DNA of 64,000 nucleotides from Candidatus Bathyarchaeia archaeon (lineage in GTDB: Archaea; Thermoproteota; Bathyarchaeia; Bathyarchaeales; DTEX01), in assembly GCA_038867895.1 (NCBI GenBank), contig JAWBXL010000004.1, positions 3,117 to 67,116 on the forward strand, read 5' to 3'. Positions 1,139-10,220 of this stretch are shown one piece after another; position 1 is the stretch's first letter, and every line of letters begins with the position of its first letter. The translations under genes were made by a program, and so were the position numbers. The notes below the pieces were generated by a model. That model did no database searches, was not told where the DNA came from, and saw only the letters and a program-made list of their open reading frames with translations.

Positions 1139-1627
1139 TCATCTTGTAGAGTGGGCGTATACGCGTCTTATAATCTCTTCAAGAGCGAATCCCATCACAT
1201 TTATAGCGATTATTGAGCCTACAAGAATCCCTAGTAAACTTAACTCCAACGGTATATTGAATAGGTATGCTAGGTATCCGCCGACTATAACTGTTATAAT
1301 TATTGTTTCGGTGAGGGAACCGAGAAACCTCGCGATGAAACCATTTTTCCTTCCTATCTGATATGCAATGAAGCATGCTATGAAATTCGCAATTGACCCG
1401 CCAATAATGTCTATTGGTCCTAGGCTACCATATATGTTCCCTATAATGCAGCCTAGACTCAAGCCCACGGCGCAGGGCATGCCGAAGACCATTGATAGCG
1501 GTAAAAGTGCATCTGCCACCCGAACCTGCCATACACCGAAGCTTATCGGCGCCAATAAGATAACTGCCACCGCGTAAAGAGCTGCGAAAACTATAGTTAA
1601 CGATACTTCTCTCAGCCTAAATTTCAT
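1139..1627 (-). CDS. queT: queuosine/archaeosine-precursor transporter QueT family (ECF S-component-like)
   Basis: From MKFRLREVSLTIVFAALYAVAVILLAPISFG..VRVADALLPL the protein matches my recollection of QueT N-termini and length (~160 aa). ATG 1627 is preceded by GGGGGTGA 10 nt upstream. The track's TTG 1744 overlaps the TATA-like box. Confidence 0.7.
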   Translation of the reverse strand: MKFRLREVSLTIVFAALYAVAVILLAPISFGVWQVRVADALLPLSMVFGMPCAVGLSLGCIIGNIYGSLGPIDIIGGSIANFIACFIAYQIGRKNGFIARFLGSLTETIIITVIVGGYLAYLFNIPLELSLLGILVGSIIAINVMGFALEEIIRRVYAHSTR

Positions 1628-1742
1628 ATATCCTTTTTCACCCCCACTTTCTGCGGAGGCCGGTTGATTTCCCCTTTCGGCTGCCCTATCATCCAAGGGC
1701 TCGTCACATATGGGGTAGAGGCGGAACTCAACCCCGCCTAAC
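1628..1742 (-). promoter_or_regulatory. GC-rich structured 5' leader of queT (candidate cis-regulatory RNA), downstream of a TATA-like box at 1743-1754
   Basis: Minus-sense ATTTTTATATTT lies at 1754-1743. Three hairpins follow: GGCGG/CCGCC (1738-1720), GCCCT/AGGGC (1700-1683), and CCTCC/GGGGG (1659-1641). The last one pairs with the 5' part of the SD. Confidence 0.4.
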
Positions 1743-1834
1743 AAATATAAAAATCTATTAGTATAAATGTATGCTTAACACTACAAAAGGAGATTAAAGT
1801 AACGAAGCTCTTGTTTTAATAAGTTTATGATCGT

Positions 1835-2278
1835 TTACTTCTTGGTTTCTTCTGGCTCGTTTAGGGTTGCTATAACAGCTATTTCTATTTCCATGCCCTT
1901 TCTGCCGAGCGCTGTAACGCCTATGAGATCTGAGGGGATATCGGCTGGATCCAAGCCATTCTCTCTAAAGAATTCATCTCTAACTTTTGCCATCTTCTGG
2001 TACTTTTCTGAGGCTACTATCCCCTCAGGGAAATCCCCAGCTATATAATATGTTATCTTAACAATGTTATGCAGCGATGAACCCATCTCCTCTAACCTAG
2101 CCTTAACCTTTTCCAGCGCCAACCTTGTCTGAGCCTCTATCCCCTCAACTGGCTTCAAGGTCTCAGGATCAATCCCCTCGGTTCCCGCTAGGAAGACAAA
2201 GCCGTTTGCAACAGCACCTTTAGCCCAATGCATCCGCCTTCCACCATAAAAGAGCGGATATGTTTTTGGCTTTACCAT
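1835..2278 (-). CDS. ridA: RidA/YjgF family reactive-intermediate deaminase
   Basis: FVFLAGTEGIDPET...IEAQTRLALEKVKARLEEMGSSLHNIVKITYYI fits the YjgF pattern. ATG 2278 is preceded by GGGTGGA, whereas the track start 2302 has no SD. Confidence 0.7.
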   Translation of the reverse strand: MVKPKTYPLFYGGRRMHWAKGAVANGFVFLAGTEGIDPETLKPVEGIEAQTRLALEKVKARLEEMGSSLHNIVKITYYIAGDFPEGIVASEKYQKMAKVRDEFFRENGLDPADIPSDLIGVTALGRKGMEIEIAVIATLNEPEETKK

Positions 2279-2456: not shown

Positions 2457-3893
2457 CTAGGAAATCCCTCTAATCTTTCTTACCTCATGGAGTACTTTGT
2501 GGAGTATTTCCATATCTGGGAGAATACCCTCAGGCGGCTCAACAACCTTCTTTAGTGGGAGTGGAACGTGATCCATACGATATGTCGTTCCCTCCGCTTC
2601 TATTCCAACGAATGCTGATGGAATAACTACGTCAGCCATCAGTGCTGTTGGTGTCATACATGGGTCAATAACCACAAGCGGTGTTTTAACGAGATTTTCA
2701 ACAGCCTTTCTTGGAAAGCTTGAGACCGGATCTGAGGCCACGACAAGCGTTGCATCAACGTCCCCCCTAGATAAAATGTCTATAGCTGATGTCTCTCCGG
2801 GATTATATCTTGGGTATCCATGGGAGAAATCGATGGCATAGGGATATCCCGTCTGCCAAGTAAAGACGATGTTTGCTCCGGTTACATTAAAGTGGCCCCT
2901 CATGGGCATGATAAGGAACTTAGTATACATGTTTAAATCTCTAGTCAACTTTATCGCAACTTCAATATTTCGGGACTTGCCGACACTCATCGTTAAGCCG
3001 AGCCCGAAGAAGAGTATGCCAAACCTAGAATTAACCATAAGGTCTGCAAGCTCCTCAAGCTCTTCAATTGGAACCCCCGCAACACTATCCGCATCGAGCT
3101 CCCCGTCTCTAATTAGAGCCCTGAGGGCCTGCAGGACATCGTAGTCTCCGCCCGGCTCAACCTTAATAAACACGTCAGCCAAGTCGGCAGACCTAGTCCT
3201 CTGAACATCCACAACAACCAGCTTCCTCTCTTCCGGCGGAGGCAGCATCCACTTTTCCTCTTCAGCAGCCTGTAATGCTGCGGCGCCCCCCTTAAGGACC
3301 CTACCTGCAGCCCTATATCGCCTCTTCCTCGCGGACTCAAGAATTAAGCGTGAGAGATAGCGCTTCCACACAGCCCTTTGGAACCTTCCCTCGGCCAAGG
3401 CTGTGTAGCGCTCTAAGTGACGTGGGTGCGCGCTCCATGGGTTGCATCCCCAATAAATTATTAGGTCCGCCCTATGCCTTATCTGCCCAAGAGTGCATCC
3501 CGGTATTCCAACTTCCTGTATTGCTAGGATTGATGGACCATGACAAACTGTGGTAGTGTTGTCTATAACTCCACCCACCTCCTCGGCGAGCTCTAAGCCA
3601 ACCTTTATCGCCTCACAGCTAGTGTTGCTCCAGCCGTAGAGGAGCGGGTAGGATGCCCCTGCGAGAATCTCAGCGCACCTCTTTATTGCCTCATCAAGAG
3701 TTGTTTCGACAAGCTCACCATTCTTTCTTATGAGCGGTTTAGTATTTCTATGCGTAGCATATTCCATGAACTTTGAGGCGCCTAGGGCACACGCATTTCT
3801 AACATCAATAATAGCGTTATTTTCAACAAGCACCTCGATATCATCACAACAGCACCCGCAGAATGGACATAAAACTCCAGAGACAACCTGCAT
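2457..3893 (-). CDS. fwdB: formylmethanofuran dehydrogenase subunit B-like molybdopterin oxidoreductase
   Basis: The N-terminal CPFCGCCCDDIEV motif and overall MopB-like sequence fit FwdB. It is followed by fwdD and sits divergent to ftr. Confidence 0.8.
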   Translation of the reverse strand: MQVVSGVLCPFCGCCCDDIEVLVENNAIIDVRNACALGASKFMEYATHRNTKPLIRKNGELVETTLDEAIKRCAEILAGASYPLLYGWSNTSCEAIKVGLELAEEVGGVIDNTTTVCHGPSILAIQEVGIPGCTLGQIRHRADLIIYWGCNPWSAHPRHLERYTALAEGRFQRAVWKRYLSRLILESARKRRYRAAGRVLKGGAAALQAAEEEKWMLPPPEERKLVVVDVQRTRSADLADVFIKVEPGGDYDVLQALRALIRDGELDADSVAGVPIEELEELADLMVNSRFGILFFGLGLTMSVGKSRNIEVAIKLTRDLNMYTKFLIMPMRGHFNVTGANIVFTWQTGYPYAIDFSHGYPRYNPGETSAIDILSRGDVDATLVVASDPVSSFPRKAVENLVKTPLVVIDPCMTPTALMADVVIPSAFVGIEAEGTTYRMDHVPLPLKKVVEPPEGILPDMEILHKVLHEVRKIRGIS

Positions 3894-3896
3894 TTA

Positions 3897-4295
3897 TTAT
3901 CCCTCGACCCTCTTATTTCCATAGGTTTTTAAAAGTAATTCTTTTATGCCTGGTACCGGTTCGCTTGTGGGCTCAATCTTAACTTTAAATCCCTTGAAGT
4001 TCGGCATTCCAGTTCCCTCCGTCTCGGATGGTAATATGGAGTTGACCCATGGACCGAATGGTATAAAGACTAGTCCCGGCGTCTTAATTCTCTTTGATCT
4101 CTTGGCCTTAACGACAACCGACCCGACAACAGTTGTGACCTTAACATTATCTCCATCCCTCACACCAATCTTAACCATATCCTCGGCATGCATTTCACAA
4201 ACAGCTACGCTCGCCATGTATTTCTCAGTGATTTTAGCGTGCTCCTTAAATTTACCTTGGTTAATGGTTCTACCGGTAATAAGAATAAACTCCAT
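3897..4295 (-). CDS. fwdD: formylmethanofuran dehydrogenase subunit D (molybdopterin dinucleotide-binding beta-barrel)
   Basis: At 132 aa, ILITGRTINQG...VCEMHAEDMVKIGVRDGDNVKVTT is typical of FwdD. A 3-nt gap separates it from fwdB. Confidence 0.75.
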   Translation of the reverse strand: MEFILITGRTINQGKFKEHAKITEKYMASVAVCEMHAEDMVKIGVRDGDNVKVTTVVGSVVVKAKRSKRIKTPGLVFIPFGPWVNSILPSETEGTGMPNFKGFKVKIEPTSEPVPGIKELLLKTYGNKRVEG

Positions 4296-4415
4296 ACTTC
4301 AAGACCATCCAGCCATTTATTCCATCTAAACTCTACTAAGATATTTATTTTTTCTCTAAAAACCTTATTAAGAAAAACATGTTTAAGTTAAGTAAATTAG
4401 CGGAGGCGATATTGG

Positions 4416-5318
4416 TTGTCAGCTCTTAAATATGGAGATGTCGAAATTGAAGATACTTTTGCGGAAATGTTTGAGATGTGGACTAGTAGGGTTTTGATAA
4501 CTGCTGAGAATGAAAAGTGGGCTTTTAGGGCCGCTGAGAGCGCCGTTGGCTTCGCATCTTCAATAATAGGCTCGCCAGCTGAGGCCGGGATAGAGCGGCT
4601 TGTCCCGCCTGAAGAGACGCCTGATGGGAGGGTTGGCATACTAATACATTTTTATCATCGAACAAGAGGCGATTTAAAGAGGCAGATGATTACTAGAATA
4701 GGACAGTGTGTTATGACATGCCCGACAACGGCCGTGTTTGATGCCCTCAAGGAAACCGCCAGGAAACTTAAGGTTGGGAGGAGCCTGCGATATTTCGGCG
4801 ACGGCTTCCAGAAATTCGATGAGTTATATGGCCGAAAGGTGTGGCGCATACCAGTCATGGAGGGCGAGTTTCTAGTTGAGAATAGCTTTGGTGTAAAGAA
4901 GGGTATTGCTGGAGGAAACTTCTTCATAATGGCAAGGGACTTGAAGTCCGGCTTAACCGCCGCCGAAGCTGCCGTTGAGGCCATAAAAAGAAATGTTAAG
5001 GATGTAATAATGCCATTTCCCGGGGGGATATGTCGCTCAGGCTCTAAGGTCGGCTCACTTAAATATAAAATCCCAGCATCAACAAATCACCTCTACTGTC
5101 CAAGACTAAGGGGCATCGTGACGGATACCCGTGTTCCTGAAGGCGTAAATGCGATATATGAGATAGTGATAAATGGGCTGAATTTAGAGGGAGTTAAGGC
5201 TGCTATGGCGGAAGGCCTTAGGGCCGCGGCTAAGGTTCCTGGAGTCATCAGAATATCTGCTGGAAATTATGGGGGGAAACTCGGTCCATTTAAAGTTTAC
5301 CTACGCGATCTGCTCTAG
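4416..5318 (+). CDS. ftr: formylmethanofuran--tetrahydromethanopterin N-formyltransferase
   Basis: VEIEDTFAEMFEMWTSRVLITA...GFASSIIGSPAEAGIE fits Ftr. The protein is 300 aa with a TTG start. Confidence 0.9.
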   Translation: MSALKYGDVEIEDTFAEMFEMWTSRVLITAENEKWAFRAAESAVGFASSIIGSPAEAGIERLVPPEETPDGRVGILIHFYHRTRGDLKRQMITRIGQCVMTCPTTAVFDALKETARKLKVGRSLRYFGDGFQKFDELYGRKVWRIPVMEGEFLVENSFGVKKGIAGGNFFIMARDLKSGLTAAEAAVEAIKRNVKDVIMPFPGGICRSGSKVGSLKYKIPASTNHLYCPRLRGIVTDTRVPEGVNAIYEIVINGLNLEGVKAAMAEGLRAAAKVPGVIRISAGNYGGKLGPFKVYLRDLL

Positions 5319-9886: not shown

Positions 9887-10220
9887 GGACGGCGGGTCAC
9901 TGAGGCTCGACGCACAGAATCCGCAGACCCAAGCCAACCCGCCACTCATACCCGCACCCCTCTGAGCGCTGAGCGCCCGGACTTAGGTTGCTCCCTCCCG
10001 GGCCTGGCCAGGTTCGCCCGGCAAACGCGGTTACACCCCTCCTACGGGGGGTGCCCCGCGACCGTCAGCCCCAGAGGACAGATATTCATTGTTTAGGGTT
10101 GACTGGGACTACGGCCTTACGCGCCTTACCTCAGCTTTCGGCCCGCCGTATAGGGGGTTTGCGGTCGAGGCCCTTTGCCTCTCAGGGGACCCCTAGCCCC
10201 CCGCCTAAGACCCGCCGTCC
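9887..10220 (-). ncRNA. signal recognition particle (7S/SRP) RNA
   Basis: This is a GC-rich island with complementary termini (GGACGGCGGGT ... ACCCGCCGTCC). Minus-sense GGCCAGGCCCGGGAGGGAGCAACC (10009-9986) matches the conserved helix-8 core (compare E. coli CCAGGUCCGGAAGGAAGCAGCC). A downstream GGGGTGCGGG resembles the M. jannaschii S domain as I recall it. Confidence 0.8.

Follow-up and report, generated by a model that had tools for sequence, protein, structure and literature searches.

A conserved, covarying leader RNA upstream of queT in Bathyarchaeia, a candidate archaeal riboswitch predicted to respond to preQ0

The DNA analysed here, a 64,000-nt stretch of the genome of a Candidatus Bathyarchaeia archaeon (the window), carries a queT gene preceded by DNA visibly richer in G and C than its surroundings. 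This raises the question of whether synthesis of the transporter is controlled by a structured RNA and, if so, what that RNA would sense. A sequence-only reading had described a GC-rich leader amid AT-rich intergenic DNA and a queT gene starting at ATG 1627. Both descriptions hold. GC content is 0.55 at 1651-1750 compared to 0.27 at 1751-1850 and 0.27-0.36 in the flanks overall, and the gene product matches PF06177, the profile beginning ∼10 residues downstream of ATG 1627. QueT homologs are numerous (n = 682 at E ≤ 1e-30), and those of Bathyarchaeia are named QueT transporter family protein. The leader spans window positions 1740-1638 on the minus strand (103 nt), and its 3' end is the SD of queT. 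It is present in a single copy in the 1.7-Mb genome of the organism, which rules out a repeat or mobile-element origin. The gene and its predicted signals are as follows.

1139..1627, minus strand: queT, 162 aa, start codon ATG 1627, the putatively regulated gene; PF06177 QueT, 98.4 bits
1638..1645, minus strand: SD GGGGGUGA, 10 nt upstream of the start codon, as read from the sequence
1762..1767, minus strand: TTTATA, a candidate archaeal TATA box lying ∼26 nt 5' of the first base of helix P1, as read from the sequence

An SD-like sequence occupies the same position in every relative aligned. The TATA box had previously been placed at 1743-1754, which would put the transcription start inside P1; we prefer TTTATA at 1767-1762, which would imply a start at ∼1739. 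TATA-like boxes are found 21-27 nt before P1 in loci L008-L010, L278, L280 and L296. Because of the spacing of TTTATA, which is matched in these related loci, the structured RNA probably starts the queT mRNA. Directly upstream of the queT promoter region lies a RidA/L-PSP family gene (PF01042, 65.7 bits; 1835-2278, minus strand), and a T-run past its stop may be a RidA terminator. The queT ortholog at L009:1501 (also in L286) has CTG in place of the ATG or GTG start codon of the others, with no in-frame alternative close by. Farther away, the window contains a full-length archaeal SRP RNA (RF01857, 168.6 bits; 9890-10217, minus strand) and, by eye at 2457-5318, a back-to-back arrangement of the minus-strand genes fwdB (478 aa) and fwdD (132 aa) with plus-strand ftr (300 aa); neither fwdA nor fwdC lies near this module.

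Comparison with relatives supports the leader as a cis-acting structured RNA with four helices, referred to as P1, P2, P2b/P3 and P4. We gathered queT homologs from 60 related genomes and compared their upstream DNA. In this comparison, which the sequence-only reading had recommended for related archaea, the leader is conserved above coding level and its helices covary. The long leader, hereafter form A, is also present in five species of the window's genus (alignments A2 and A4), and across the six genus members identity is 86% in the leader, 76.5% in queT DNA (first 480 nt) and 60% in the 80 nt upstream. Further relatives of form A were added by a metagenome pattern scan and by the covariance models R2 and R3, defined here, against which the window, itself a seed sequence, scores 100-109 bits. 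In a set of 15 distinct sequences, standard pairs make up 96.9% of pair cells, compared to 40-54% when partners are slid; across the two alignment sets, 97-98% of cells are paired compared to 38-57% in slid controls. Two-sided changes are present in 15 of the 27 pairs among the 15 sequences, and in 12 of 27 in the first set. Because form A alignments were fitted to a covariance model, they lean toward the model structure; the compensatory changes are visible by eye. P2b/P3 and P4 are the best-supported helices. The RNA is encoded on the queT strand because on the opposite strand the invariant G-U pairs would read A-C. Folded alone, the window sequence is unremarkable (z = −1.7), and the case therefore rests on the comparison with relatives. 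The predicted elements of form A in the window are, in 5' to 3' order:

1719..1739, minus strand: P1 hairpin AGGCGGGG/UUCCGCCU, AGGCGGG(G)/UCCGCCU, with loop UUGAGU at 1731-1726 (family consensus NNGAGY)
1712..1715, minus strand: 5' strand of P2, CCCC, in an invariant UUACCC block; pairs with GGGG at 1674-1671
1707..1711, minus strand: internal-loop bases AUAUG (consensus A-R/K-AUG), unpaired, invariant or near-invariant columns in alignments A4, A5 and A7
within 1678..1706, minus strand: P2b, UGAC:GCCG, 1706-1703 with 1681-1678, with covariation
1700-1683, minus strand: P3 hairpin GCCCU/AGGGC, with conserved loop UGGAUGAU at 1695-1688 (consensus RRAUGAY)
1671..1674, minus strand: 3' strand of P2, GGGG, SD-like; pairs with 1715-1712
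1661..1670, minus strand: single-stranded tail AAAUCAACCG (consensus GGGAAAUCAACC-N), near-invariant
1640..1660, minus strand: P4 hairpin, composed of anti-SD GCCUCCGC at 1660-1653, loop AGAAA and SD strand GUGGGGGU at 1647-1640

Three of the four helices drawn from the letters alone, GGCGG/CCGCC (P1), GCCCT/AGGGC (P3) and CCTCC...GGGGG (P4), are borne out by covariation, while the fourth, GGGGT/ACCCC, gives way to a different pairing in which ACCC pairs with the downstream GGG(G) at 1674-1671 to form P2. In form A, the seven pairs of P1 are 100% paired, its G-U pair is invariant, and its closing pair alternates between A-U, C-G, U-G and G-C. The CCC/GGG core of P2 hardly varies; its single clean compensatory change is CUC/GAG in L296 (ACUC/GAG including the preceding A), and the fourth position is A-U in L012 and L287 and C-G in the others. 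P2b/P3 has compensatory changes in seven of nine pairs, with 96% of cells paired; examples include GCCUU/AAGGC, GGCUUAGGCU/AGCUUAAGCC and UGGU/ACCG. Of the 15 rows in alignment A7, 13 have the same tail (L293 differs and L297 is unaligned there); in L300 the tail reads AAAACAACC. P4, which pairs the SD with the adjacent anti-SD and forms in the MFE fold computed for the window sequence, is compensatory in six of eight pairs, with the variants CCUCCGC/GUGGGGG, CCCCCGC/GCGGGGG, CCACUCC/GGAG(G)UGG and CUCCAGC/GCU(U)GGAG. Thus, the earlier suggestion that the last hairpin occludes the 5' half of the SD gains support from covariation; the A-rich tail noted after the SD, by contrast, is a variable spacer that is not conserved. 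In copies of form A that precede yhhQ, an extra 5' hairpin abuts P1 (approximately L281:2312-2330, L282:3607-3625 and L287:660-681); this hairpin covaries (GGGGUUUAACCCC vs. GAGGUUUAACCUC) and its 5' strand is SD-like.

Although rare, form A is not local: it occurs in two classes of the phylum, with only about six independent lineages found. We define it by P1, ACCC:GGG, P2b/P3 with the RRAUGAY loop, GGGAAAUCAACC and the anti-SD:SD hairpin in front of queT or yhhQ, all of which are present in the window; L278-L282, L287, L291-L296 and L300 are independent members. The lineages are L280; the group L278/L279/L285; L281/L282/L287, which correspond to two genomes from another Bathyarchaeia family, G187 and G207, each having two copies; L293 (genome G166), which matches only weakly (30.7 bits); L296 and L297 (G356 and G384), from another class of the phylum, with L297 matching at only 26.4 bits and lacking a canonical P1; and L300. 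The gene that follows varies. It encodes the window-type QueT in the window's genus, a QueT subfamily ∼28% identical to the window type in L278, L280 and L296, QueT in L293, and YhhQ/Vut_1 (∼158 bits) in L281 and L287, while in L282 form A precedes an operon of yhhQ followed by QueC (112 bits). The yhhQ of L282 (L282:2834-3506) seems to begin ∼40 nt past the SD and is predicted as a fragment of 152 aa, which may reflect a frameshift or an assembly error. One metagenome stretch, L277 (1861-1955, minus strand), was rejected as a member: it fits the DNA pattern but none of the models, has CACCCCAGAUGUG and UGGGAAAUCAACCU at form A spacing without P1, P4 or QueT (14.8 bits) and is chance or a fragment.

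A shorter leader, form B, takes the same place in most relatives and is informative about form A. Form B is ∼60 nt with the layout GGCGGGUGAG-(hairpin with CCUCC)-CCCGUUCCGCC-AUAUAAACCCCGG-...-GGAGGUG. R1, a covariance model of form B built here, matches 114 of 151 genomes of the order, mostly once per genome, and a DNA-pattern scan of GTDB genomes returned >120 form B stretches, nearly all in Bathyarchaeia, with some on Methanomethylicota and Asgard contigs; the Asgard contigs were confirmed by score (57-69 bits). Two stretches binned as Actinomycetota, L166:3101-3165 and L227:7241-7298, show the form B pattern, but only their GGCGGGUGAG...CCCGUUCCGCC hairpin scores, at 10-18 bits, and as tested they are not members. 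Form B is located directly before QueT in 92 of 99 copies and before QueC (212 bits) in one. Its P1 covaries (UGCGG/CCGCA, GACGG/CCGUC and GGCGC/GCGCC), and its loop anti-SD pairs better with its own SD than with the SDs of other copies (−12.25 vs. −10.73 kcal/mol, with none of 2000 permutations as good). The evidence for the CCG:CGG pairing of form B is its invariance, because the sole variant, L144, is not cleanly compensatory when aligned.

The two forms have the same P1 (GGCGGG...UCCGCC with a closing G-U), GAG after the 5' strand of P1 and ACCC after P1; both probably sit at the mRNA 5' end, and they mask the SD with a CCUCC-type anti-SD and precede queT and queC. Beyond these elements they diverge. 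In form B, the P1 loop contains UGAG-hairpin-CCUCC-(C)CCGUU, including the anti-SD, and is followed by an A-rich linker and by AAACCCCGG, which can close an H-type pseudoknot. By contrast, form A in the window has the 6-nt P1 loop UUGAGU and lacks the loop anti-SD, CCG-UU and the CCG:CGG pseudoknot; it has ACCCC then AUAUG where form B has GG, and ∼60 extra nt separate ACCCC from the SD. In the alignments, form A adds the P2/P2b/P3 arm, the invariant tail GGGAAAUCAACC and an anti-SD:SD hairpin that is local and nested. Its CCG pairs with (U)GG beside ACCC as the nested P2b closed by P3, while form B uses CCG in a pseudoknot, and the A-rich...ACC tail comes after P2 in form A and after P1 in form B. 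We suggest that form A resembles an “unknotted” and rebuilt form B. A shared binding pocket is conjecture, because form A cannot make the CCG:CGG pseudoknot of form B.

Within genomes, the two forms look mutually exclusive. R1 finds no form B in the window's genome (G000), genomes with a strong form A match have no R1 match, and G166, with its weak form A, has R1 matches of only 19-20 bits. Moreover, the forms replace each other. In a quick QueT tree, form A-linked QueTs are spread over three distinct positions amid the form B-linked ones, and the starred branches require three or more form changes; a QueT 70% identical to that of the window has form B (L301), while another that is 72% identical has form A (L300). 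In sister species (L307-L309 and L312, in genomes G001, G004, G005 and G021), whose QueT is only 35-39% identical to the window's, a degenerate form B remnant has lost GUGAG, CCCGUU and AAACCCCGG while the promoter context is kept, which appears to be riboswitch decay. The queT genes of L305 and L306 (Methanomethylicaceae) have an SD and no structured leader upstream; the DNA upstream of them contains repeated GAATCTCATAAAGAGAATTGAAAG units resembling a CRISPR array.

Known RNA families do not account for form A. At gathering score, Rfam 15 finds no riboswitch family in the whole window or in 20 loci, and searches at E ≤ 10 with 401-, 141- and 121-nt pieces find no riboswitch, including preQ1-I, -II and -III, a check proposed from the sequence alone; noise matches to alpha_tmRNA, U1, DUF2815 (wrong strand) and C4 were discarded. 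The preQ1-I class (RF00522) is a 34-nt H-type pseudoknot in which AC/UC precedes the 3' strand of P1 and the C pairs with the ligand (PMC11625349). Like the window leader, it is found before queT, yhhQ or queC-type genes, combines a small GC-rich P1 with an A-rich strand after it, and turns translation off by occluding the SD, the mode of action that we propose for the window leader. However, form A has YU rather than AC/UC before CCGCC (UU in the window; relatives have CU or UU), is ∼100 nt long as opposed to 34 nt, and is archaeal, while preQ1-I is so far bacterial only. A loop-to-tail P2 of the preQ1-I kind is possible in the window clade as GGUUGA:UCAACC, with variable loop bases that change without compensation. 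Thus, the earlier view that the leader is not preQ1-I stands, with the ligand-pairing AC/UC absent and no match to RF00522 at E ≤ 10. The preQ1-II class (RF01054, the COG4708/queT motif of Streptococcaceae and Lactobacillales), which is confined to Bacillota (PMC11625349), resembles the window leader in length (∼80-100 nt), in having an embedded hairpin and in fully burying the SD with an anti-SD; however, its fold is an HLout pseudoknot whose SD helix, P3, serves as the floor of the ligand pocket, while the SD helix of form A is separate, nested and downstream of the core. In preQ1-III (RF02680, Faecalibacterium), aptamer and SD-masking helix are separate modules in ∼100 nt, as in the window, but the anti-SD sits in the P4 loop and docks on the 3' tail (P5) beside an HLout pseudoknot, where the window has a nested SD hairpin, and there is no sequence or covariance-model similarity between the two. 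In the literature on archaeal, Bathyarchaeia or preQ0/preQ1 archaeal riboswitches we found no description of such a leader. A 2024 review of preQ1 riboswitches describes three bacterial classes and never mentions archaea (PMC11625349), and the riboswitches commonly reported in archaea are only those for TPP and fluoride (PMC5473149). Judged by these comparisons, form A is a new, rarer and longer architecture of an undescribed archaeal leader family.

Altogether, conservation, covariation, sequestration of the SD and gene association support the earlier proposal of a riboswitch-like archaeal leader in front of queT, for which ligand binding is predicted. We suggest, with a probability of about 0.6, that the leader is a translational OFF riboswitch for a 7-deazaguanine, most likely preQ0. 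The compound presumably sensed is read from the association with QueT, YhhQ and QueC. YhhQ is the preQ0 transporter of Escherichia coli, its homologs have been proposed to function in archaeal preQ0 salvage, and preQ0 is the base put into archaeal tRNA by arcTGT (PMC5372724); queT, yhhQ and queCDEF are targets of bacterial preQ1 riboswitches (PMC11625349, PMC5372724). The window genome (94% complete) encodes arcTGT (285 bits), while a search for PTPS/QueD returned no match and a search for QueC only partial matches of 20-24 bits to the first 58-69 profile positions and no true QueC. Because arcTGT is present and QueC and QueD were not found, the organism probably depends on imported preQ0.

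In the proposed mechanism, ample preQ0 would turn transporter synthesis off. The preQ0 pocket would be built on P1, P2 and the invariant single strands NNGAGY, ARAUG, RRAUGAY and GGGAAAUCAACC, and the bound ligand would lock P1 and P2, so that the anti-SD would be available for P4, which would block the ribosome. In the unbound RNA, UCAACC-N-GCCU, i.e., the tail and the start of the anti-SD, would pair with the 5' half of P1, exposing the SD and allowing the transporter to be made. Alternatively, the SD-like GGGG or GGG(G/A) of P2 would capture the C/U-rich anti-SD to the same effect, a competitor role of the P2 3' strand that its sequence makes conceivable. Stabilization of P1/P2 by the ligand would remove both competitors and favor P4.

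The evidence on the first of these competitors is mixed. In the window clade, the tail is complementary to the P1 5' half and loop (GGUUGA:UCAACC and AGGC:GCCU), and the anti-P1 duplex has −14.8 kcal/mol in the window compared to −9.4 ± 2.3 for shuffles, better than ∼98% of them. This helix is strong in the lineages of the window, L278 and L280, with GUGGC:GCCAC in L278 as a compensatory variant, and is missing from L281 and L293. Cognate pairs have no scoring advantage over non-cognate ones, and the P1-loop bases facing UCAACC (UU, AU, UA, CC) change without compensation. We do not claim pseudoknots between the P1 loop and UCAACC or between UGAU of the P3 loop and AUCA, because the bases are invariant or change one-sidedly (L009 and L300). 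By constrained folding, the best SD-free fold of the window lies 10.4 kcal/mol above the MFE, and those of relatives 0.4 to 14.8 kcal/mol above it. Thus, a simple thermodynamic switch is not evident because P4 is very stable, and the spread in the energy needed to release the SD (0.4-14.8 kcal/mol) suggests that switching may be kinetic or may depend on other factors.

The same stability of P4 would fit a protein-binding translational operator, in which a protein reads the invariant loops and stabilizes or opens the SD hairpin while the RNA does not itself sense a small molecule: opening P4 may call for a helper, and long invariant single-stranded blocks such as GGGAAAUCAACC, RRAUGAY and NNGAGY are also typical of protein sites. 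We nevertheless regard such an operator as unlikely. No conserved neighboring regulator gene was seen and the flanks differ between loci (RidA in the window, a glycosyltransferase and a DNA polymerase at the form B locus L301); three unrelated families of transporters and enzymes follow the same RNA in two archaeal classes, as is the pattern for metabolite riboswitches; and forms A and B interchange although they have little in common beyond P1. If the RNA does bind a metabolite, another cargo of QueT or YhhQ could be sensed, such as preQ1, queuine, guanine or another purine, or a product of the archaeosine pathway, in keeping with the sensing of preQ1 by bacterial queT switches (PMC11625349). 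This we consider improbable, since archaeal tRNA receives preQ0 via arcTGT (PMC5372724), arcTGT is present here, and the preQ0-making QueC is in operons behind both forms.

A structure that masks the SD without a ligand, be it constitutive, an RNA thermometer or a stability element, would make good sense of P4 as the dominant predicted feature. However, a thermometer needs only P4, while some 80 nt upstream show conservation, covariation and invariant loops, and temperature sensing leaves the link to preQ0-related genes unexplained, making this explanation quite improbable. Highly improbable is that the DNA has no RNA function of its own, either as a decaying remnant of form B, with which it has P1 and ACCC in common, or as the N-terminal part of a longer QueT read in the open frame from TTG 1744. 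Actual decay, as in L307-L309 and L312, looks quite different; form A is conserved above coding level, covaries, recurs in distant lineages, and keeps its structure and invariant loops. The sequence-only reading had itself named translation from 1744 as evidence against its proposal; this start is excluded, as homologous proteins start at the position equivalent to the ATG, the Pfam QueT domain begins after ATG 1627, and 1-nt indels that distinguish close relatives disrupt the frame, two separate ones lying inside the leader between the window and its closest relative.

The preQ0 riboswitch thus remains our preferred reading of the window leader. A broader proposal goes further and is more tentative, with odds that we place slightly short of even: archaea would own preQ0 riboswitches in two interchangeable architectures on one P1, a 60-nt double pseudoknot (form B) and a 100-nt nested four-helix structure (form A). 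If this is true, these would be the first archaea-native riboswitch classes and the first tuned to preQ0 instead of preQ1, and form A would be an example of an aptamer that was “unknotted” and rebuilt with its function kept. The longer form replacing the short pseudoknot in some lineages would provide a natural pair for studying the remodeling of riboswitch folds. A covarying leader before queT, yhhQ and queC would extend metabolite-sensing RNA to archaeosine metabolism and would give a handle on preQ0 salvage in abundant, mostly uncultured archaea of sediments and hot springs.
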